From Candidatus Atabeyarchaeum deiterrae (GTDB taxonomy: Archaea > Asgardarchaeota > Atabeyarchaeia > Atabeyarchaeales > Atabeyarchaeaceae): a stretch of 64,000 nt of DNA. The stretch's first letter is position 1. Each line of letters begins with the position of its first letter. The stretch lies in the NCBI GenBank assembly GCA_037310415.1, contig CP147780.1, positions 992,001 through 1,056,000 of the forward strand, written 5' to 3'. The notes under the pieces were generated by a model that saw only the letters and a list, made by a program, of their open reading frames with translations, had not been told where the DNA came from and searched no databases. Shown one piece after another: positions 31,102 through 42,453 of this stretch. The translations under genes and the position numbers were made by a program.

Positions 31102-31418
31102 CTTGAGGGTTTCTTCTCTGAACGTCGTATCGGCTACGTCTATTTCGACAGTGCTGATTGTTCAACACTCCCCTTCGAGCATCGTCTTCAATTAAGATGA
31201 GTGAAACCAAACTTATAACGATCGCACGGGTCTGCCACCTTGCTATTCCTCTGAATTGGGTGAATTACAAGAACAACGGGATTCAAACCACTGAGATAGA
31301 TTGAGTCGCAGGATTGTGCTCTTTGTATAGCTAAAGCTCCCCAAAAAAGTTAAATACCGCTCTACTCATCAATTATCTTCGCTTACTCGGATCAGAAAAC
31401 CTTGGTTGATGAGCTAGA

Positions 31419-31853
31419 ATGCGCAAGTCGCCTCGTGGAGAGTTCGCCGCAAAAAGGATTGTCGAGAAACGAAAGCATTTCAGGTGGCGCAGCGCCAAGT
31501 ACAAGGTTAGAGCACTGCACATCAGAGAAATGACTCCAACAGAGGGCACTCCGCAGGCATCCGGCATCGTCCTAGAAAAAGTAGGACGAGAACCCAGAAA
31601 ACCCAGCTCCGGAGTAAGAAAATGCGTAAGAGTCCAACTCATCAAAAACGGCAAAACCGTCACAGCCTTCATCCCCTACGACGGAGCCCTAGACTACATC
31701 GACGAACACGATGAAGTAATGATCGAAGGCATTGGGGGCAGAAAAGGGGGGTCAATGGGGGATTTGCCGGGCGTGAGGTATCGGGTTATTAAGGTGAATG
31801 GGATTTCGATCCAGGCCTTGTGGTTGGGCAAGAAGGAGAAGCCCATGAAGTAG
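31419..31853 (+). CDS. rps12: 30S ribosomal protein uS12 (archaeal S12/S23), divergent and not in an operon
   Basis: [47 protein letters not shown]. Confidence 0.93.
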
Positions 31854-31994
31854 GGTTTCCTTTCTCTCCGTGTTTCTTCTTCTGCTGCTGTTCTCTACTT
31901 TCTGTTTAGTCAGATGGTCTTGATCGTGCATATCGGTTGTCCGTTTTGATGGGTGGTCATGGCGGATGTGAGTCGTTCGTTCTCTTTTATGTTT

Positions 31995-32312
31995 TTATGG
32001 CCAAGGCTTTTTGAGGAATTCTTTTTCCTGTTCTTTGTCATCTTCTAGGTCTCTTTTTGTGACTATTTCGTAGCAGCGGTCTCCATGTATTTCTTCAATG
32101 TGATCCCCATGCCTCTCATCTATGTATGGGAATGATACTCGTATTACGTACTTGTCCTCTGCGATTGAGATTGCTTGTTTTGCTTCTTCTGGTGTCAGAC
32201 CTTCCTGAACGAGTAGTTGTTCCATCTTGTCTGCTTTACAGAATTTGCTTTTGGTCTTGGTGAATACTTGTTTTACCGTTGAAATAAGTTGGTCTTCGTT
32301 AACGGCTACCAC
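31995..32312 (-). CDS. Hypothetical protein, possible small winged helix; overlaps the LAGLIDADG gene by 14 nt
   Basis: Overlap with 32299-34980; three helices plus hairpin pattern; acidic tail. Confidence 0.6.
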   Translation of the reverse strand: MVAVNEDQLISTVKQVFTKTKSKFCKADKMEQLLVQEGLTPEEAKQAISIAEDKYVIRVSFPYIDERHGDHIEEIHGDRCYEIVTKRDLEDDKEQEKEFLKKPWP

Positions 32313-34980
32313 TCTCCATCATACTCTTGAGTTTTTCCTGTTTCCTGCTCTGTGGAAATCCGATTTCGTCGCAGAACACTCTATTATCTCGTTTCGAAGT
32401 TATTTGAAGAGCCCATGAGACGCTATAGCCATCTTCTCGCTTGTATATCTCTATTGGGTGTTTATTGACCGTTATGCCGAAATCCTCATGGAGCATTCTT
32501 GCCTCCGACTCCAAAAGTCGTGGACGCTCAGGTTGCAGTGCGTTTCGGATGTCTAGGGGTAAGTCTTTGAACATGCAATACCTCACATGTTTCTCACGGA
32601 CAACGACTTTGGGTACCTTTTCTCTCCAGTGTTCGCTCATTGCGTCGAGTCGGTTCCTCTGCCCGTCTGACAGTCCCTGGGTCACGTCTACAGCTCTCGT
32701 GAGGGTGGTTATCCCGCAGTGAGGTGAGGGTGATCCTTCGTCGCCGAAGGCTTGTTTTAGCCACTCTCGTTTCATTTCGATTGACCCGTTGCGTATGAAC
32801 GTGGGTATGTCTGGGTTTTGCAGAATGATTCTACCGGTTATTGCTCCTGATCTCTGCAGGACGTGTCCAACTATGTCTGTTGTTGCACGCACTCTCGCGA
32901 TTCTGCCGTCGGTGTATTCTCTGTCGAGTATGTTTGGCCTGCCGAATACGTTTGTTAGTGATTCTGCGATTCTGTTTCTTTGTTCTGCGTCCTTGTTTGT
33001 GTAGTCGAATCTTGGTCCTGCGCCTTTTGGTGTGTGGATTGATCCGTCTGAGAATCTTGCAGCGTGGAGTCTCGCTCCGTCGGTGGTGTTCAGTTTGAAG
33101 GGGAGGTTTGGGTTCTCAACCGCTCTGCGGTTTCCTATTGCCGTGATGTGGCTGTTCGACTCATCGAGGTCTCTGCCGAGGTATCGTAAGATCGGGATCA
33201 GTTTGTTAGCCACCATGCCGTCCATTCGTTCACTCAGTTGGTCGTTTAGATATTTGATGCAGATTTGTGTTCCTCTGTCTTTTAGCTCCTGTCGGAGTGG
33301 GGTTTTCCCTCCTGCTTTATTGATTGCAGCTTGGAGTAGTTCTTGTTTGTACTCTTTGTCAAGATATACCATTGTGGTTAGTGGTAGTGCGTACCATGGT
33401 GTTTCGTAGGGTGGGGCTGTCTTGTTTTCTTTTGGTATGCGGAGGAATTCTTCTCCTTGGTCTGTTTTGTATCTGTAGAGTTCTAAGTTTCCTATTCTTT
33501 CTTGCTCTACTGTTGTGATCTTGTAGTTTTGGTTTTCGTGGGTTATTGTGTGTCCTTCTCCTTCGAGCTTTAGTACTGTTTTGTCTTTTCGCTTTTCTCG
33601 TGGGCTTGTTCTTTCTTTGAGTGGTTCTGGTGAGAGGACTATGCTGTTTGTTTTCACTCTAAAAGTGTTGGCTTCTCCGTCTCCTCCATTTGTGAGTAGT
33701 TCTTCTGCAATTTTCTTGCTAAGGTTTATTGCTCCGTCTTCGATTCTTGCTACTACGAGTCTTTCTCCTCTTTCTGTTTGGATAACCATCTTCGCGTAGT
33801 CCCCATTTCTAACGTTGAACCCTAGTTCTCCAAGTTTGTCGTGGAGTTGTATCTTCGTCTCGCCATTGGTCGTGGCTGGTTCGACTTGGATGCTTTGCTT
33901 CCAGGGTTGGCCCTCAGGTCCCCTCACATTTAGAACATTAACATCTACTTTGTCTCCCACTTTGATGCCCATGGATTCAACGTCCGCTCTCGTGGTGTTT
34001 GCTCTTGTCCCTTTGACCGCTTTGAGCTCAGCGATGGCTTGAACCCCATTCTTCTCGAGAAGTGTCGTTATTATGTCTCTTCGGTGGAACTCCACATTTG
34101 TCATGGGGTTAAGCTTTAGGTAGTATGTCTGTTGAGCTTGGCTGTAGTCTATTGTTGCGTCGGGGTTTCGGGTACTCTCAATGAACGCATCAATGCTGTA
34201 GATTGCTCCTTTCCACTTTATGGCTATGTTTTGGCTTTCGGATGAGCGAAACTCCCTCAGTTCTTGCTCTAAGTCCTTCCCAGTCATGTGGGATAGTTGT
34301 TGTAGATCATGTAAGGCGGTGTGTTCTTTGTTGCTCTCCAGGTAGGATAGTTGGCTTTCACTGTATCCAAGCTCATCTGCAAGTTCGCGTCTGCTGAGAC
34401 CCAGTTCTGTGCGCCACTCTCTAACTAGTTCGCCTGCACCAACTACCCTAGCATCGTAAACCCTTATCTTTCCCAGCTCGGTTGCGTAGGTTGCTTGTTC
34501 CGCTTCCGCTCTGTCGGGGTTACTATGGTGCTCCTTCTTGGTCCTTGTGGAGGCGTCACCGTCACCTCGTATCTTGGTGTTGTCTTTTGTCTCCCCCTGC
34601 CCGCGCATGTCCACATTATTGGGATGTTGCTGTCGTTGCTGCTCTGATCTTTGCGGGTGTTCTCCTATTGCTTCTCTTTTCCTATCTGCGTCTTCTTCTT
34701 TTTGCTTCAGTCTGTCACCATCGGCGCTGGGATTCTCTGATTCAGTGTTAGTCGACTGGTTTCTTATCTCTGCACTTATCCTATGTCCCTCCATCTCGTC
34801 TACCTTGATCGTTGTTTCATTGCTCTCGACAGGACTATTCATTGACCTCTCATATTCTTCCAAGCACCATTCTGACAGGTAGTCCCATTCGCCATCTTCT
34901 TCGCGCGGGTTTTCCGCTTTTTCCCGTAGCTTTTCTCCCTTTTCACCAGGCAACCTCTCGCCCTCCAACAGCCTTGTCAT
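32299..34980 (-). CDS. Large free-standing protein: disordered charged N-terminus, XRE-HTH, and C-terminal two-motif LAGLIDADG (DOD-type) endonuclease domain
   Basis: VREWRTELGLSRRELADELGYSESQLSYLE; GARLHAARFSDGSI, YTNKD, KREWLKQAFGDEGS, FCDEIGFPQSRKQEKL; no intein splice residues. Confidence 0.75.
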   Translation of the reverse strand: MTRLLEGERLPGEKGEKLREKAENPREEDGEWDYLSEWCLEEYERSMNSPVESNETTIKVDEMEGHRISAEIRNQSTNTESENPSADGDRLKQKEEDADRKREAIGEHPQRSEQQRQQHPNNVDMRGQGETKDNTKIRGDGDASTRTKKEHHSNPDRAEAEQATYATELGKIRVYDARVVGAGELVREWRTELGLSRRELADELGYSESQLSYLESNKEHTALHDLQQLSHMTGKDLEQELREFRSSESQNIAIKWKGAIYSIDAFIESTRNPDATIDYSQAQQTYYLKLNPMTNVEFHRRDIITTLLEKNGVQAIAELKAVKGTRANTTRADVESMGIKVGDKVDVNVLNVRGPEGQPWKQSIQVEPATTNGETKIQLHDKLGELGFNVRNGDYAKMVIQTERGERLVVARIEDGAINLSKKIAEELLTNGGDGEANTFRVKTNSIVLSPEPLKERTSPREKRKDKTVLKLEGEGHTITHENQNYKITTVEQERIGNLELYRYKTDQGEEFLRIPKENKTAPPYETPWYALPLTTMVYLDKEYKQELLQAAINKAGGKTPLRQELKDRGTQICIKYLNDQLSERMDGMVANKLIPILRYLGRDLDESNSHITAIGNRRAVENPNLPFKLNTTDGARLHAARFSDGSIHTPKGAGPRFDYTNKDAEQRNRIAESLTNVFGRPNILDREYTDGRIARVRATTDIVGHVLQRSGAITGRIILQNPDIPTFIRNGSIEMKREWLKQAFGDEGSPSPHCGITTLTRAVDVTQGLSDGQRNRLDAMSEHWREKVPKVVVREKHVRYCMFKDLPLDIRNALQPERPRLLESEARMLHEDFGITVNKHPIEIYKREDGYSVSWALQITSKRDNRVFCDEIGFPQSRKQEKLKSMMESGSR

Positions 34981-35096
34981 TGCTGTCGGTGTGCGTCGGC
35001 AGGTAGATTGGCGCGTGTAGTTTGGCTGGCCGATTGTCTTATTGCTGGTTCTCTTTCAACAATGCTGACAAGCTCTATGTGTGCAAGTGGATTCGC

Positions 35097-35288
35097 TCAC
35101 TCGTTGTACTTATTGGTGGCTTTCTTGAAGATCTTTAATGCCAGCGTCGCCATCCTATCGGGTTCCCCTGTGTAACTTGCTGCCTCGACCACGATAAGAT
35201 CCACCAATCGCTCAACGTTCCTTGCTTTATAAGCCTTAGAAACGGCTTCACATGGGTTCTTGGTTTTCTTCTGGACCAAATCCAGCAT
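35097..35288 (-). CDS. Small hypothetical protein
   Basis: ATG ORF with AAGGT upstream, divergent from lhr; weak support. Confidence 0.35.
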   Translation of the reverse strand: MLDLVQKKTKNPCEAVSKAYKARNVERLVDLIVVEAASYTGEPDRMATLALKIFKKATNKYNE

Positions 35289-35394
35289 AGTTACCTTTTG
35301 TTGTATTCAGATTGGTTAACGCAAGATTTTTTATCCAGTCTCGACATAGCTAGATTTTTGCGACGAAGTATGCTCTCAGCGAGTGACGTAGCAG

Positions 35395-38300
35395 ATGACT
35401 ATTAGCTTCATCAAGGAGCCTCCATACTCAGAGAAAGAGACGCTCGATAGGTTGCGCCCATATGTGGCTCAATGGTTCAGAGAGACGTTTCAAGAGATGA
35501 CTCCCCCTCAGACATACGCCATTCCATTGATTCACGAGGACAGAAATACGCTTATATTCTCGCCCACCGGCTCTGGAAAGACGCTAGCTGCGTTTCTTTC
35601 AATGATTGACAAACTCTTCGCAATGGGAGAAAAAGGAGAGCTAGATGAGACCATCTATGTCCTCTATGTCAGCCCTCTGAGAGCACTAAACAATGATATC
35701 AGACGCAACTTGATGATTCCACTCGAAGGCATAAGAGAAATCTCACGCAAGGGCAATCTAGAGTTACCCCTCATCAACCTAGCTGTGAGGACTGGGGACA
35801 CACCTCAAAATGAGCGCAGCAAGATGCTTCGACATCCCCCTCACATATTGATAACAACTCCCGAGACGCTGTCGATTATACTTACTTCACCCAAATTTAG
35901 CCAGAAATTGAAGACGGTCAAATGGGTGATTGTTGACGAGATCCATGAGTTATGTGACTCAAAGAGAGGGGTTCACTTATCCTTAAGCCTTGAGAGACTG
36001 CAAAACCTCATCGGGGTTGACAAAGAGTTCGTGAGAGTAGGTTGCAGTGCGACTCAGGCTCCCGTGGAAGAAATAGCAAGGTTCCTAGTGGGATACCGTG
36101 ATGATGACTCATTCAGAGACTGCGACATTGTCGACGTTTATTCGACTAAATCCCTTGACATAAGAGTTCTGTGTCCGGTAGCAAATCTTGCGTATGCTAG
36201 CTACGACTCTGCGACTGATAGCATGTACGACCTTCTCAAGAAGCAAATCGACTCTCACAGAACAACTTTGATATTTACAAATACTAGAAGTGGAACTGAG
36301 AGAGTCTCTTTCAGGCTTAAGGAACTGTACGGAGAAGAGCATGTCGACCAACTGGCGGCTCACCACGGCAGCTTGAGCCGTGACACTAGACTCGATGTTG
36401 AGGAACGCCTGAAAAAGGGAATGTTGAAAGCCGTCGTAAGCTCAACTTCACTTGAACTCGGAATAGATATAGGATACGTTGATCTTGTCTCTCAAATTGG
36501 AAGCCCAAAGAGCGTCGCCAAAGGCCTACAGCGAATTGGGAGAGCGGGTCATGCTCTGCATGAGACATCAATTGGACGACTACTGGTCTTTGATCTAGAC
36601 GACCTTGTAGAGTGCACTGTTCTGGTCAAATCAGCTTATGAAGGCAAGATCGACAGAGTTGCAATCCCAAGGAACTGCTTGGATGTTCTATGTCAGCACA
36701 TAGTGGGCATGAGCATCCAATCTAGATGGTCCGTTGCTGACGCATACCAACTCGTCAAGCGTTCATATTGCTACCATGAACTATCATTTCAGGATTTCAT
36801 GAGCGTGGTGAAATACCTTTCCGGCGAACATGTGAGTCTCGAGGAGCGAGGAGTCTACAGGAAGATCTGGTTTGACGAGGAACAACAAGTCTTCGGGCGG
36901 AAGAGAGGCGCCCGAATGATATACTTCTTGAATGTGGGAACTATTCCAGAAGAAGCTAATTATAGAGTTCTCCTTGAGGAATACAGGAATCCGCTAGGTC
37001 AGCTGTCTGAGAGCTTTGTTGAACGACTCCAACCCGGCGACATTTTCGTTCTCGGCGGCAGGGCGTATGAGTTCAAAAGGACAAGCGGAATGAAAGTTTA
37101 TGTTGGACCAGCCTTCGGTAGACGTCCAACTGTTCCGTCATGGAGTGGCGAGATGCTTCCAAGAAGCTTCGACTTGTCATGCGAAATCGGCAAATTCCGC
37201 CAGGAACTATCAGACAGAATAAGGAAGGAAGGGCTAGATGTTGCTCGAAGATGGCTTCTGGAGGAGTACAAAGTAGATGAGAGATCAGCCGAGAGCATTC
37301 TGGTTTATTTCAGAAATCAACTTGCGATCACTGGAACTGTGCCAACCGATAAGAGGATCATAATTGAAGGATACATCGACAAAAAAGGTCGGCTCAATAT
37401 AGTCTTCCATAGCGTGTATGGCCGACGGGTGAATGATGCTTTAAGCAGAGTATATGCCTATGCTGTAAGCAAGCTCGCAAGAGCTAACGTGGCTACCGCA
37501 ATTCTCGATGATGGATTTGTGATAACCCTCCCAGCTGGGCGCATGATTGATCTAGCAGGAATCCCTCCACTTGTGACACCTGATAATGTCGGGGTATACA
37601 TACGCAAAGCGATCAGAAGAACTGAACTCTTCAAGCAGAGATTCCGCCACTGTGCAGTCAGAAGCTTCATGGTTCTGAAAATGTACAAAGGGTGGGAAAT
37701 CTCTGTCAGTAGACAGCAAACAAGAGCCGTGAAGGTTCTTGACTTGTTGGAAGGGACGGATGACTTTCCGGTGGTGAAGGAGACCTACAGAGAGATACTT
37801 GAGGACGTAATGGACCTACCGAACGCCACGAGCATTGTCAAGGGAATATATGACGGTGAGATAGATATCCGAGTTCTTCCCCTTACTGATGTTCCATCCC
37901 CATTCTCCCATAGCTTGATCCTTGTGGGCGCGGAAGACGTTGTCCTGATGGAGGATCGCGGAGCGCTCCTTAGGGAGTTGCACCGCCAGGTTCTCGCGCG
38001 AGTTGTCGGTGAAGCGGGTGAGGCGCTATTCTCAGAAGAGATAGTCCAAACTCTGTATAATCAGAGGCAGCATGTTACTCCCGAGAGCCACGGGAAAGTT
38101 AAAGAAGATATTCCAAGAATACTTCACGATATAGGACCATCCGAACTCTTCCGAGACACCTACCCAACAATCCTAAACAGAATGGTTGTCGACCCTGACA
38201 CTACTAGGAACTGGGCAAGAGAGCTTGTTGCCGACAGACAGCTGATTATAATTCGAACAGCGAAAGGAGAACTGGATGGCGTCACAATAGACGACTTCCC

Positions 38301-41300
38301 GATGTATTATCATGTCTTCAAAACCTCGTTGAGTGACCCTGACGAGCTTGAGAACAGAATTATCAGAACCCTTAATGAGAATCCTCTTCAGACGAATGAA
38401 CTTCAGGAAATCTTGAATGTCAAAGACGCTGAGCTCAGGAGGGCTTTGCGAAGACTTGAAAGAGCAATGTTGATAGTCAGATCCAAATACGTGCCAGAAG
38501 GATCTGCCAAGGATGAAGTCCGCGAGACAACGTGGAATCTGCTATCAAAGCATATGCCAAAAGAGATCATACTCCGACTTGACGAAACGGATCCTGAAGA
38601 TGAAAAGGAAAAAGCTGCAAGACAATTCCTTTGGTCCCACGGTCCTTGCATCTCATCAGAAGTGGGACTCTGCCTCAACATGACAGAAGAAGAAGCTGAA
38701 AGAATTCTCAAACGACTAGAAAGAACTGGCGAGGTCTTCAGCGGCAACTTCATAGCTTCAAAACCCCCCGCCCAATACCTAATTGCCGAAGACCGAGAGC
38801 TACTGAAGCAGTTAGAAAAGGGAAGAGAGCCAACAAGATTCTCCGAAGCCGTTGTTACGCAATTGGTACTGGAGAAACAGCATCTGACTTCAACAACTAA
38901 GGGACGAGGAGAAGAAGATGTCATAAGAATCATTGGTGAAATCGGGCCGATACAGACACACAGAGCGCTATACCACCGAATTGAAGGATTCGACTGGGAT
39001 TCGCTCCGACGACTTCGCGCTGGCGATAGGAGAATAGTCGTTGGAAGATTCACAGAAAGAGGATTATCATACATAAGCACGAGCGATCTTCCAATTTACT
39101 TGGCTCTACACGAAACCTCACAGAGCAACCTCTCAAACATTGATCAGATGATACTGAACACGATCATACGCGAGAATCCGATAACTAAAGGCAGGATAAT
39201 CGCGTTAATGGCGGTGGACAAGCCAACTGCGGAGGAGAGCTTGGAGAGACTGGAAGAGTCCCTTTTAATCGTCAGAACTGTTCCTCCCGAGACAGAGATG
39301 GAAATCCAGCAAATAACTCTCTATGAACCTATGGAGAACTACGCCTCTCAGTTCAAGAAACTGAGTAGAGAGGAGGCGCTCAGAGCGATTGCCCTTAAGA
39401 CCATTGAGACGCATGGACCGATTACTATCCAGGGAATAATATCACTGACTAATCTCCCATACGACGAAATAGAAGGCACTCTCACTACACTCAGAAGAGA
39501 AGGGTTGATCTTATCAGGGCAATTCATTGAAGGCATACCCATCGAAACTTACGTCATCGCACGCGACCTTCCAATGCTAAGAGAACTCAGCGACCGATTA
39601 TCCGCGAACACTCCAAGAGATGACGAGATCCCCTACGATGGCAGAATAATGGTAGACGTACTTAGCAACCTAGATCCATATACATGGAGAGTTGCCCAAC
39701 AGTTAACTGATCTATATGGAAGCTCATTCCTCAACCCAATAATTGTTGATGGAACGCTTGTAGGTGCAGCTGATGTTCGCGTAACCCAGGATCTTCTGCA
39801 TGTGGCAGATATGAAGTTGTCAGATGTCTTATCCGAGAGACTCAATTTGGTTAAGAGAATAGGGCAGCGATTCATCGACATCGCATTATATTATGGACTC
39901 ATGGCAGTGGAGGTCGAGTTCATTTGGGGTCAACCTGCGGTATCGGACAAGAATGAGAAGATCGTGAAGACCTTCACTGAACTCGGCTTTGAGATCGTTG
40001 GCGACAGGCTATGCTGGGGAGAGACGCCATCAGAGATTTTCGACGAACATGTTGTCAGAGAATTCCAGTTGAAAAAGCAACACGTTCACCCAGAGACACG
40101 AGGCAAGACGAAGCAAGACATAAGCAGAATAATAGATGACATAGTTGGCGTACGACTCCCATGGGAAGACAAGCTCAACATAAGAGTTGAAGGACTAAAA
40201 CGAGAATGGGTGGAGGAACTACTGAAGAAAGATAGGGTCCTTGTTCAAGACGCCCTGTTCAGTTTGAAACCAATGATTGTACCTGTAGCGGATTGGTCAA
40301 CCTATTGGTGGGCTAGCAAGACACCTTTGAAGTTGGGCATTGACCATATTAGCCTTCTCAAGATCATCAGGGAGACTGGTCCAATCTCAAAGAAGGCACT
40401 GATCAGAAGATCTCTGATGCATCAACTCGATGCCGAGCAGATTCTTTCAGTTCTGTCTGACATGAGACTGGCCCTGAGCATAGGCGGCTTAGCAGCTGCA
40501 AGCGTCTGGGTCGCGACAGACAAATGGTTTCCACCGACTGTAAAAGCACGAGAATATGTCGAGCCCCATGACGCAAGAAGAAAGATCATCCTCAGGTTTC
40601 TTAGGAGTCTGGGTCCTCTCACCGTATCACAGCTTCGTGAACTTACAGGATTTCATTCAAGGCAAGTGAGACTCTGTCTCATGGAACTCAGAGACCAAGG
40701 AAAGATTGGACTAGGAAGATTCTCAAGATCTGCAAGGACCCAAATACAATTTGTAGCTCTTGACGACTTGGACGAACTTCACTCACTTTCGTCTACCCTG
40801 AACAGAGGTTCAAAGCGGCTAGGTAGGAGCCTTACAATCCCTCCAGGAGACCCACTCTACTATGCGATTAGGGAGGAGATCAAAGACAACTTCAAAACAT
40901 CTTGGTGCTACTCAATCTGCTTAGATGACGGTTCAGTGGCGGCGGTTTACAAATCGAAAGGTGTTAAGAAAAGACACTTCGTGGTAACAGATCTCCTAAT
41001 ACTCTCCATTCATTGTGACAACAAAGATGTCATCAATAACGTCATTGACCAAATTGATGAAGTCGCCCGGTATAGCGGATCACTCGACATTGAACTCAAG
41101 ATGATCAATGAAAAAGCAGTCACCTATGAGGGTAACCAGGGTATTGTGGAACTCTTCAAACTAAGAGGATACAAAGTTGGAGGGACAGTTCTCTACAAGG
41201 CCTTCTCAGTAGCTGTTCAGCCCAGTGGTAAGGAAGTGTTTGCAGAAGATGTCTGCATAGAGTTCCTCATGCAGAGACAACATCTCGCTCCACTCTACCA

Positions 41301-42453
41301 GGGAAAAACAAAAGAAGACATTTTGACAATCCTCCACGACATAGGACCAATCCAATGGTCTGATTCGATAGCAATTAGAGTTGAGAAGTTTAACCCGAAT
41401 GACTTGGACGAACTGAAGTGGAGAGAGCGAAAAATAGCACATGGGAAGTTTCTAGGCGAAAACATAACTCAAGTACCAGTAGATGAGCTGCTCGATTACT
41501 ATTATGCTTCAAGACCACGCTTTCTCGTCCTTGGGTACGACGAACAAAGGGTGTTGGACATACTACAGGAATTCGGACCATTGGCTGAGAAGGAGATCGC
41601 AGCGAAAATGAATCTGGACATAGACTCTGCACAAAGAGCTATCGAGAACACAGAGAAAGCTGCCAGAATCGTCAGAGTTAGGAGAAGTGAATCACTTTAC
41701 TCATCTGATGTTTGGCTTTACGACGTGATAGACCACTATTTGCCGAATGGCATAGCGGAATTTGAAAGCACAAATCCCAAAGAATCACGGAAGAAGATAA
41801 TACTGAAATTCCTTGCCGCAAATGGACCGGTCAGCCTGAGACAGATTGAAGAATGGTCCCACATCGAACCTTCGGAGATAAAACCAGCGCTGTCAGAGCT
41901 CGAGGCGGAAGGAAAGATAACATCAAACGTCTACATTGAAGGAATCGCAGGAAGAAGGTACGCCAGAAAAGAAGACTTGTCAGAGCTCCGAAACCTTGAA
42001 GAACTATATGTTTCGCAGAAATTGAGTGGCGAACCACCCTATTATGTCATAGTCCCAAGCTATGACTCTATGGTTAGAACATGGAAAGACGAGCTTCTCA
42101 GAAGATTCTCTATGGGGTTAATAGAGCTGGGAGCAGACTATTACATGCTTGCACTCAGATCGGGTAAATCTGCAGCAGCGATGCAGGTGCACTACGACAT
42201 AAACACTCTACGAATACATGACATGGAGATACTTAGTGACTTTGAAAGTGAGACCACGTCTTCAGTCATCAAGGAAATCGAAAAAGTAGCGCGTGAATCA
42301 AGAAAAATGGAGATTCAAATCGAACACATAGACGGCAGAGCAGTTGAAGATAAACTGAACAGACAACTACATGATCGATTTCTCGGAAGCGGGTTCCAAA
42401 CTGATAATAAGGGAGTTCTGCACAAAGATGTTGCGAAGCCCGATCGCGCCTAA
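35395..42453 (+). CDS. lhr: Lhr-family SF2 helicase with four C-terminal tandem AlkZ/HTH_42-like winged-helix modules
   Basis: PTGSGKT, SPLRAL, RTGDT, TTPE, DEIH, SAT, HHGS, LELGID, QRIGRAGH, GTIP, PSW.GE, PSPF; repeats beginning xxQH. Confidence 0.9.
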   Translation: MTISFIKEPPYSEKETLDRLRPYVAQWFRETFQEMTPPQTYAIPLIHEDRNTLIFSPTGSGKTLAAFLSMIDKLFAMGEKGELDETIYVLYVSPLRALNNDIRRNLMIPLEGIREISRKGNLELPLINLAVRTGDTPQNERSKMLRHPPHILITTPETLSIILTSPKFSQKLKTVKWVIVDEIHELCDSKRGVHLSLSLERLQNLIGVDKEFVRVGCSATQAPVEEIARFLVGYRDDDSFRDCDIVDVYSTKSLDIRVLCPVANLAYASYDSATDSMYDLLKKQIDSHRTTLIFTNTRSGTERVSFRLKELYGEEHVDQLAAHHGSLSRDTRLDVEERLKKGMLKAVVSSTSLELGIDIGYVDLVSQIGSPKSVAKGLQRIGRAGHALHETSIGRLLVFDLDDLVECTVLVKSAYEGKIDRVAIPRNCLDVLCQHIVGMSIQSRWSVADAYQLVKRSYCYHELSFQDFMSVVKYLSGEHVSLEERGVYRKIWFDEEQQVFGRKRGARMIYFLNVGTIPEEANYRVLLEEYRNPLGQLSESFVERLQPGDIFVLGGRAYEFKRTSGMKVYVGPAFGRRPTVPSWSGEMLPRSFDLSCEIGKFRQELSDRIRKEGLDVARRWLLEEYKVDERSAESILVYFRNQLAITGTVPTDKRIIIEGYIDKKGRLNIVFHSVYGRRVNDALSRVYAYAVSKLARANVATAILDDGFVITLPAGRMIDLAGIPPLVTPDNVGVYIRKAIRRTELFKQRFRHCAVRSFMVLKMYKGWEISVSRQQTRAVKVLDLLEGTDDFPVVKETYREILEDVMDLPNATSIVKGIYDGEIDIRVLPLTDVPSPFSHSLILVGAEDVVLMEDRGALLRELHRQVLARVVGEAGEALFSEEIVQTLYNQRQHVTPESHGKVKEDIPRILHDIGPSELFRDTYPTILNRMVVDPDTTRNWARELVADRQLIIIRTAKGELDGVTIDDFPMYYHVFKTSLSDPDELENRIIRTLNENPLQTNELQEILNVKDAELRRALRRLERAMLIVRSKYVPEGSAKDEVRETTWNLLSKHMPKEIILRLDETDPEDEKEKAARQFLWSHGPCISSEVGLCLNMTEEEAERILKRLERTGEVFSGNFIASKPPAQYLIAEDRELLKQLEKGREPTRFSEAVVTQLVLEKQHLTSTTKGRGEEDVIRIIGEIGPIQTHRALYHRIEGFDWDSLRRLRAGDRRIVVGRFTERGLSYISTSDLPIYLALHETSQSNLSNIDQMILNTIIRENPITKGRIIALMAVDKPTAEESLERLEESLLIVRTVPPETEMEIQQITLYEPMENYASQFKKLSREEALRAIALKTIETHGPITIQGIISLTNLPYDEIEGTLTTLRREGLILSGQFIEGIPIETYVIARDLPMLRELSDRLSANTPRDDEIPYDGRIMVDVLSNLDPYTWRVAQQLTDLYGSSFLNPIIVDGTLVGAADVRVTQDLLHVADMKLSDVLSERLNLVKRIGQRFIDIALYYGLMAVEVEFIWGQPAVSDKNEKIVKTFTELGFEIVGDRLCWGETPSEIFDEHVVREFQLKKQHVHPETRGKTKQDISRIIDDIVGVRLPWEDKLNIRVEGLKREWVEELLKKDRVLVQDALFSLKPMIVPVADWSTYWWASKTPLKLGIDHISLLKIIRETGPISKKALIRRSLMHQLDAEQILSVLSDMRLALSIGGLAAASVWVATDKWFPPTVKAREYVEPHDARRKIILRFLRSLGPLTVSQLRELTGFHSRQVRLCLMELRDQGKIGLGRFSRSARTQIQFVALDDLDELHSLSSTLNRGSKRLGRSLTIPPGDPLYYAIREEIKDNFKTSWCYSICLDDGSVAAVYKSKGVKKRHFVVTDLLILSIHCDNKDVINNVIDQIDEVARYSGSLDIELKMINEKAVTYEGNQGIVELFKLRGYKVGGTVLYKAFSVAVQPSGKEVFAEDVCIEFLMQRQHLAPLYQGKTKEDILTILHDIGPIQWSDSIAIRVEKFNPNDLDELKWRERKIAHGKFLGENITQVPVDELLDYYYASRPRFLVLGYDEQRVLDILQEFGPLAEKEIAAKMNLDIDSAQRAIENTEKAARIVRVRRSESLYSSDVWLYDVIDHYLPNGIAEFESTNPKESRKKIILKFLAANGPVSLRQIEEWSHIEPSEIKPALSELEAEGKITSNVYIEGIAGRRYARKEDLSELRNLEELYVSQKLSGEPPYYVIVPSYDSMVRTWKDELLRRFSMGLIELGADYYMLALRSGKSAAAMQVHYDINTLRIHDMEILSDFESETTSSVIKEIEKVARESRKMEIQIEHIDGRAVEDKLNRQLHDRFLGSGFQTDNKGVLHKDVAKPDRA
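38062..42450 (+). repeat. Protein-level tandem repeats within lhr (270, 400, 400 and about 390 aa)
   Basis: Conserved His codons of QRQH, EKQH, KKQH and QRQH at 38071, 38881, 40081 and 41281. Confidence 0.85.

Follow-up and report, generated by a model that had tools for sequence, protein, structure and literature searches.

A strand-polar third-position switch within rps12 of an Atabeyarchaeia genome and its association with a neighboring predicted LAGLIDADG endonuclease gene

The window analyzed here is a stretch of 64,000 nucleotides, positions 992001-1056000 of the closed 2.76-Mb genome of Candidatus Atabeyarchaeum deiterrae (G000). It carries the ribosomal protein gene rps12, an insert with a free-standing endonuclease gene (HEG), and a helicase gene, arranged as follows in window coordinates.

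31419-31853, + strand: rps12, archaeal uS12, 144 codons, host of the switch (from translation and orthologue comparison)
31557-31709, + strand: A/C arm, codons 47-97, with 51/51 codons ending in A or C (third-position count)
31710-31751, no strand: transition zone, codons 98-111, with mixed third positions; putative focal point and candidate cleavage region
31731-31853, + strand: G/T arm in rps12, with 32/41 codons ending in G or T (third-position count)
31854-35320, no strand: inserted element of ~3.4 kb, T/G-rich on the + strand (alignment to an empty-site relative)
31995-32312, - strand: P0003, a small conserved ORF of 105 aa that travels with the endonuclease gene (homologues beside HEG copies)
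32299-34980, - strand: P0002, a free-standing HTH-LAGLIDADG endonuclease gene of 893 aa, convergent on rps12 (predicted from its HTH and fold match)
35395-42453, + strand: Lhr-type helicase gene, the conserved and unskewed right flank (Pfam)

The uS12 protein encoded at 31419-31853 on the + strand looks normal for archaea on translation; its orthologues within the same family show 83 to 88% identity and carry the Pfam annotation Ribosom_S12_S23. The gene is solitary, with an M20 peptidase-like gene on one side and the insert and Lhr on the other. The usual rps12-rps7-EF-2 cluster is not present, and EF-2 lies 0.9 Mb from rps12.

A sequence-only reading of this DNA had reported an abrupt change of third-position composition inside rps12, consisting of 51 consecutive codons that end only in A or C and a tail of 41 codons of which 32 end in G or T. 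Both counts were reproduced on recounting, and the first 46 codons were found to have mixed third positions. With a third-position A+C of 0.524 over the whole genome, a run of 51 A/C-ending codons is expected ∼3.5e-9 times per genome, and the G/T excess of the tail has a binomial P of 6.6e-5. In a likelihood scan of 2456 ORFs, rps12 ranked fifth among within-gene change-points (LLR 19.9). The T/G-rich top strand, described as running toward about 35060, does continue into the neighboring genes, and its extent had been put slightly short: the excess of T over A, with skew values of +0.2 to +0.7, spans 31750 to ∼35250 and reaches zero by 35275-35350.

An assembly chimera at ∼31730, raised in the same reading, was looked for and is absent, since independent Logan contigs (31574-32773 and 31200-34685) bridge the switch without differences. 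Contigs of four runs, which are blind to rare variants, gave no sign of alleles lacking the insert or of accumulated molecule ends. The G/T arm is native rps12 sequence and not a copy brought by the element, the rps12 tail being single-copy. An integrase-type displaced duplicate of the tail was rejected because a whole-genome search found no second copy. Anchoring of the switch at GGCC was also rejected, as the transition zone contains no GGCC and the nearest one lies at 31813.

The left edge of the A/C arm, at codon 46/47, is sharp and coincides with a shift in divergence from relatives, nucleotide identity being 0.67-0.70 over codons 1-46 versus 0.81-0.89 over codons 47-97. Alignment to the relatives thus suggests that the left edge of the G000 tract reflects a later recombination.

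On each strand, the DNA 5′ of the focal zone is depleted of G and T at free positions and the DNA 3′ of it is depleted of A and C; the pattern is its own reverse complement. Seen as substitutions, this is G>A and T>C on one strand or, equivalently, an accumulation of C>T and A>G, on either side, in the strand whose 5′>3′ direction leads away from the switch. The skew disregards gene borders and gene orientation, includes spacers, and alters amino acid content where the protein tolerates it. Codon selection is therefore no explanation, and the earlier attribution of the A/C-to-G/T pattern to strand-specific mutation and not codon preference is supported. Selection in the form of recoding against cleavage, translational codon optimization, or avoidance of mRNA structure was already disfavored, and we regard it as very unlikely. 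A/C-ending codons are those read by Watson-Crick pairing, and the four genes hosting the strongest switches of the genome, introduced below, are probably highly expressed; however, the bias flips within genes, extends through spacers and, on both strands, over kilobases of unrelated genes, shifts amino acid composition where this is tolerated (as in the EF-2 tail), affects the selfish gene too, and is missing from other ribosomal and housekeeping genes. Moreover, escape of a 20-bp site from cleavage needs no one-directional change over 150 bp to several kb.

The polarity is also that of an origin, but a chromosomal replication origin, like an assembly artifact, is extremely unlikely to underlie the switch. 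The extremes of cumulative GC skew lie at 31.7 kb and 1.229 Mb and the locus at 1.0237 Mb, a single bidirectional origin has been published for the group (PMC11291895), and the switch point falls within conserved coding sequence and is one of at least four such points. Against an artifact stand the bridging of the junction by independent contigs and the recurrence of the pattern in about five other assemblies.

The insert takes the place of ∼130 bp of the rps12-Lhr spacer found in an empty-site relative, G002. The G002 spacer can be aligned only to 35321-35423, similarity to a paralogous copy of the element (copy B) stops at 35252, and the end of the skew coincides with the right border of the insert. 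At the DNA level, copy B is 89.7% identical to 34656-35252 and 74.7% identical to 32116-33598. There are three to six HEG copies per genome, at separate loci; searches returned 26 family members, and the few with source names are labeled as Njord- or Atabeyarchaeia.

P0002 has an XRE-type HTH at residues 183-238. Its C-terminal third was modeled as a double LAGLIDADG fold (alpha-beta-beta-alpha-beta-beta-alpha, with twofold pseudo-symmetry), and the model of residues 560-893, which has low pLDDT in the first subdomain, matches TliVMA, PI-PfuI, PI-SceI, I-DmoI, and WhiA (Foldseek E 1e-5 to 1e-4, probability 1.0, TM by target 0.65-0.69). The fold search was needed, as a profile search of PDB sequences with the HEG family gave low-complexity matches only and the Pfam match to LAGLIDADG_3 (E 0.003) was below the cut-off. 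D86 (FSDGS) and D188/E189 (GDEGS) are invariant across 22 family members, and in the model acidic residues lie at the ends of helices 74-84 and 175-189, each of which is followed by a strand. With its modeled fold and acidic residues intact, P0002 is predicted to be a LAGLIDADG endonuclease. The third positions of the gene are 80 to 93% A/C in codons ∼391-750 and less biased at both ends.

In P0003, 70 to 80% of codons are A/C-ending. Its homologues come after the endonuclease gene in contigs L108, L111, and L122 and in copy B, and it has no Pfam or PADLOC match. This ORF of 85-105 aa (31995-32312 in the window, and its homologues) always follows the HTH-LAGLIDADG gene, overlapping it slightly, and may act together with the endonuclease or regulate it.

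The family's second closed genome (G001) is that of a wetland-soil Asgard archaeon labeled Atabeyarchaeia-1 (PMC11291895), and G002 is a congener of G001. The A/C-to-G/T switch of rps12 is also found in G001, L028, L108/L109, and L110 (about five relatives), and in six alleles it is positioned at ∼codons 98-114. In L028, a 1.1-kb metagenome contig, 114 codons are 82% A/C and are followed by a tail in which 31/31 of the last codons are G/T; in G001 and L110, the A/C arm spans almost all of the upstream rps12. Directly downstream of the switched rps12, the same HTH-LAGLIDADG gene lies in convergent orientation in every allele with enough flank. In G002, the site is empty, the Lhr start lying 256 bp past the rps12 stop, and rps12 has no switch (LLR 2.3). 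G002 retains saturated switches in atpB and EF-2, which indicates that the process itself is intact there. The proposed tie between the switch and the neighboring free-standing LAGLIDADG gene was thus upheld among the sampled lineages, which are few and mutually related: the carriers G000, G001, L108/L109, and L110 are switched and the empty-site G002 is not.

Within the A/C tracts of the carriers, fourfold A-versus-C choices agree only at 43 to 73% between lineages. Since the lineages differ at about half of these choices, the tracts are old, and the bias has been maintained separately in each lineage. Tract identity is 0.84-0.91 among carriers versus 0.78-0.83 to G002, and the fourfold agreement could be explained by convergence. 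The protein variants encoded by the arms are those of the respective lineage. In the transition zone, a comparison of carrier alleles showed no conservation of third positions and no conserved DNA site.

The HEG sequences are 82% identical between G000 and L108 and 71% identical between G001 and L108, while the flanking NadB gives 75% and 86% for the same pairs. NadB therefore groups L108 with G001 and not with G000, and the HEG tree conflicts with that of the host flanks. These sequence comparisons, presence or absence at one site together with tree discordance, show the HEG to be mobile.

The possibility that the skewed DNA was imported as a mosaic must be weighed here, its bias having evolved elsewhere (for example in a single-stranded or asymmetrically replicating element) and its edges representing recombination junctions or co-conversion tracts left by a single homing event or a few. 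The sharp edge at codon 46/47 that matches the change in divergence, the discordance of the HEG tree with its flanks, the patchy skew within the HEG, and the 75 to 90% DNA identity of the paralogous copies all speak for such import. It does not readily account for arms of opposite sign about one point in four different host genes, for carrier tracts that diverged in place at about half of the fourfold choices yet remained A/C-only, for arms that encode lineage-specific protein variants, or for the long atpB arm on the side opposite the inserts, and we consider import improbable.

Three further observations were made at this locus. A metagenome search for further relatives of rps12 yielded a single close allele, L028. 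Two distant metagenome alleles, L103 and L090, are ∼58 to 60% identical; one of the pair is 85% A/C up to codon 106 and 38% beyond, and the other, from the same sample, is reversed, with 26% A/C up to codon 87 and then 53%. The same region of rps12 may thus be hit in other lineages too. In G002 (L022, contig C140, 6459-6841), Lhr is broken after ∼45 codons by unrelated DNA that carries an HTH protein on the opposite strand, and the contig stops there; this DNA is probably another mobile insertion.

Housekeeping genes elsewhere had been described as mixed. This holds inside the window, where they are unbiased, as are the other ribosomal genes, but not for the genome at large: atpB, EF-2, and a RuBisCO-like gene show stronger switches than rps12, and together with it they make up the four strongest A/C-to-G/T switches in the scan of G000. 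The additional loci, all outside the window, are listed here in genome coordinates.

129145-131349: EF-2 switch
612273-613775: atpB switch
2663492-2664664: RuBisCO-like switch
123949-124971 and 2656987-2658372, and in G001 101549-103315 (L127 4550-6316): second free-standing nuclease family (P0031-P0035)

Each of the four switches is located toward the 3′ end of its conserved host gene, and the A/C codon runs reach 83 codons in EF-2, 133 in atpB, and 53 in the RuBisCO-like gene. Past the EF-2 switch, a normally conserved stretch moves to G/T-coded residues (W, C, F, and L). An 11-mer, GGCAGAAAAGG, is common to the rps12 and atpB switches. It has four genomic copies versus 1.3 expected, its sharing follows from the common GRKG motif plus A/C codons, and it is not conserved in the atpB of G002; we took it as coincidence. 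Transcription-coupled asymmetry of convergent genes was rejected as well, because genes on the + strand of the atpB island have a G/T-rich sense strand and no bias is seen in the genes convergent with atpB and EF-2.

A nuclease gene adjoins the 3′ side of the switched gene in G000 or in a relative in each case except that of the RuBisCO-like gene. In G001, a convergent copy of the LAGLIDADG family is found 1.3 kb beyond the 3′ end of atpB, and in G000 an HEG copy lies 10 kb off with cassettes intervening. A different nuclease family accompanies EF-2 and the RuBisCO-like gene, so that the phenomenon is wider than LAGLIDADG. In G001, a gene of this second family ends 150 bp away from the stop codon of EF-2; in G000, the distances are 4.2 kb to the EF-2 3′ end and 5.1 kb to that of the RuBisCO-like gene. 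No adjacent nuclease copy was seen at the RuBisCO-like gene of G001. Its members combine three to eight tandem HTH modules with a C-terminal PD-(D/E)xK-like domain, and the copies at 123949-124971 and 2656987-2658372 are the only two in G000. Pfam does not recognize the family as a nuclease. The model of the nuclease domain (pLDDT 89) matches the Bax1 nuclease domain (E 8e-4), the I-Bth0305I catalytic domain, Can2, and Vsr. In the five sequences compared, E, PD, E, and K do not vary; on these grounds, we predict a restriction-endonuclease-like nuclease unrelated to LAGLIDADG. A 712-aa gene between the nuclease gene and EF-2 has no Pfam or PADLOC family and gave weak structural leads only.

Of the five HTH-nuclease genes of G000, four are found 3′ of the four strongest A/C-to-G/T switches, and a strong switch is present at 3/∼9 HEG insertion loci against a background of 4/2456 genes (P about 4e-7). 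Nuclease copies beside switches have an own-sense A/C of 0.63-0.68, compared with 0.51-0.52 for copies elsewhere. The sequence-only reading had asked whether similar switches occur beside other LAGLIDADG genes, and in part they do. This applies to atpB, with its HEG copy in G001, and to a radical-SAM gene in G002, which has a convergent HEG copy and whose last ∼75 codons are ∼90% G/T (LLR 38.6); the HEG copies at MTAP, at a dTMP-kinase-like gene, and at a 504-aa gene have unswitched neighbors. The radical-SAM orthologues of G000 and G001 have neither HEG nor switch, a contrast with G002 that is the reverse of that at rps12 and again ties the switch to the endonuclease gene.

Several irregularities of gene or contig structure were seen at these loci. 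The switched radical-SAM gene (L123 3090-4634, G002) is called as two ORFs with 24 bp between them, and in G000 and G001 the gene is one ORF of 515-523 aa. The MTAP-like gene beside copy B (genome 938184-938810; L120 and L122) ends early in all three genomes, at 208 aa with the stop after a GWDVVG motif, and could be a split or intron-containing gene. The G002 EF-2 contig (L115) stops at codon 610, ∼15 codons past the switch, and the G001 RuBisCO-like gene (L116) is cut off at codon 296, ∼35 codons before the G000 switch position; structural change clusters at the EF-2 and RuBisCO-like switch points.

Pattern, polarity, persistence, and association with nuclease genes are thus observed features of these loci, from which we infer a cleavage site and a repair-synthesis mechanism. 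In our judgment, the rps12 switch is somewhat more probably than not a long-lived, strand-polar scar of recurrent endonuclease cutting and outward repair synthesis. The enzyme would repeatedly break or nick the focal zone, at rps12 codons ∼98-112, either when homing into naive alleles or by acting on resident or sister copies of the chromosome. After a break there, the 5′ ends would be resected, and recombinational repair would resynthesize DNA outward from the break. With the insert on the right-hand side of the cut, its copying would require top-strand synthesis from the left end through the tail of rps12 and onward over the entire insert; rightward, the top strand would be new through the tail and the entire insert, and leftward, the bottom strand would be new over a few hundred bases. 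The new strands would gain G and T either through error-prone synthesis or while single-stranded until second-strand fill-in, possible sources being G:T mispairing and deamination of nascent single strands. Purifying selection would preserve the S12 protein, hence saturation at silent sites only.

The outward DNA synthesis from the switch that had been suggested earlier fits the observed polarity, and a G/T-rich top strand up to the far border of the insert with a shorter left arm matches what such synthesis would produce. Damage to resected template tails predicts the opposite polarity, which favors damage to the new strand. For the mutagenesis of break-induced replication, long single-stranded nascent DNA is described as a main source (PMC9262586). 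Repeated homing into naive alleles, the cause originally proposed, is doubtful as the sole source, given that the A/C tracts differ at about half of the fourfold choices; the separate maintenance of the tracts favors ongoing events in each lineage, such as renewed invasion or the cutting of resident or sister copies, over a few ancient homing events. A broader reading, which we hold only tentatively and place below an even chance, is that two unrelated endonuclease families keep breaking their targets in the Asgard lineages carrying them and transition-biased archaeal repair rewrites every silent site with one outward polarity, in which case the switches would map cut sites and provide a mechanism for skews of the GRINS type discussed below.

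Some observations do not fit the scar explanation. The unswitched neighbors of several HEG copies, the unconserved third positions of the transition zone, and the sharp left edge at codon 46/47 are among them. The end of the HEG nearest rps12 (its last 110-270 codons) is less skewed than the middle, which speaks against a simple gradient from the cut; paralogue conversion might be behind this weaker skew. At atpB, EF-2, and the RuBisCO-like gene, the nuclease genes in G000 are 4-10 kb off with other genes between, and the long arm runs away from the nuclease gene. Among extreme third-position windows of G000, 94 are G/T-rich on the + strand and 12 are A/C-rich. Neither the arm direction away from the nuclease gene nor this strand bias is predicted by the model. 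The four switches lie on both replichores, and in all of them the long arm is to the right on the + strand.

These features bear on another reading, in which another process had turned the switch sites into hot spots before nuclease genes and cassettes accumulated there; recombination-dependent or cryptic replication initiation, a fragile site, or a site-specific integration site would be examples. New cassettes between target and nuclease gene at atpB, EF-2, and the RuBisCO-like gene, contig or gene breaks near the switch in relatives (EF-2 in G002, the RuBisCO-like gene in G001), a polarity identical to that of diverging replication forks, and long arms with a common chromosome orientation are all in its favor. 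However, at two loci the switch and the nuclease gene are co-present or co-absent among close relatives, such that a hot spot would need to arise exactly at the nuclease gene, and at rps12 the skew terminates at the border of the insert. We consider this reading unlikely, albeit one that deserves attention.

The closest described phenomenon is that of GRINS, which show intense local G+T versus A+C skews with abrupt sign changes on one strand (PMC8256042). These skews are strongest at third positions, shift amino acids, recode functional genes, and are tied to gene conversion; beyond PKS clusters, GRINS often occur with transposases, integrases, and endonucleases, and their cause has been unknown since their description in 2021 (PMC8256042). 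The rps12 switch resembles them as an abrupt third-position G+T/A+C skew that recodes a functional gene. GRINS are defined as repeats (>500 bp with >80% identical copies), from a mainly bacterial survey in which eukaryotes were noted (PMC8256042), whereas the recoded rps12 tract is single-copy and archaeal. Within the region, only 34656-35252 exceeds 80% identity to another copy, at 89.7%, and 32116-33598 stays at 74.7%. The skew criterion is a length of >500 bp with mean absolute GC and TA skews >0.15 in 150-nt windows; over 31557-35060, the absolute TA skew is 0.43 and the all-position GC skew 0.143, just below the threshold, and third positions are depleted of both G and T. The correlation between GC and TA skew is r = 0.02 for the whole region, 0.72 in 32116-33598, and 0.98 in rps12, the last from five windows only. 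The rps12 locus further differs in its one fixed polarity, A/C and then G/T, and in its specific free-standing nuclease gene.

By analogy, the closest mechanistic model would be intronless homing by free-standing phage endonucleases (PMC2988022), of which T4 seg and mob, with co-conversion of flanks, are examples (PMC2988022, PMC2790892). Like these, the HEG is a free-standing gene between conserved genes, would be expected to cut the conserved neighbor in genomes without a copy and to be spread, flanks included, through gene conversion, and at the rps12 locus shows presence or absence at one site and a gene tree discordant with its flanks. Unlike the phage systems, for which no strand-polar compositional scar has been described, it resides in a cellular chromosome, and its protein combines a predicted LAGLIDADG domain with an XRE HTH and a long N-terminal region.

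In yeast break repair and break-induced replication, DNA made or exposed as a single strand collects base damage on one strand, leaving polar, strand-coordinated changes beside the break (PMC9262586, PMC6786661). The polar changes on one strand are shared with rps12, where the break is one that we postulate; the clusters of yeast and tumors arise in single events, whereas the rps12 signal is an evolutionary steady state with all silent sites saturated, and at rps12 both C>T and A>G are represented. Replication strand asymmetry, at origins and in vertebrate mitochondrial DNA, involves the same base classes, the polarity of diverging forks, and an explanation in terms of time spent single-stranded, but it extends over whole replichores. 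The scale here is 0.15-4.6 kb, and up to 100% of silent sites are affected, inside genes and away from the skew extremes of the chromosome. No description of an endonuclease-anchored strand bias or compositional scar was found in the literature, and two Atabeyarchaeia genome papers mention neither LAGLIDADG genes nor local skews.

Relative to GRINS, the present locus adds a fixed polarity and a specific nuclease partner, in an archaeon. Tracts of this kind breach stationarity and can mislead dN/dS, codon-usage, and marker-gene phylogenies. The nuclease link is a candidate cause for the atpB switch and, if true, would supply GRINS with an explanation that can be tested; the compositional signal alone would then locate the cut sites of uncharacterized homing endonucleases. 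It would also mean that selfish nucleases reshape essential genes (S12, EF-2, and ATP synthase B) over evolution, amino acids included. The finding bears on how long homing endonucleases stay active after fixation and on double-strand-break repair in Asgard archaea, the closest prokaryotic relatives of eukaryotes.
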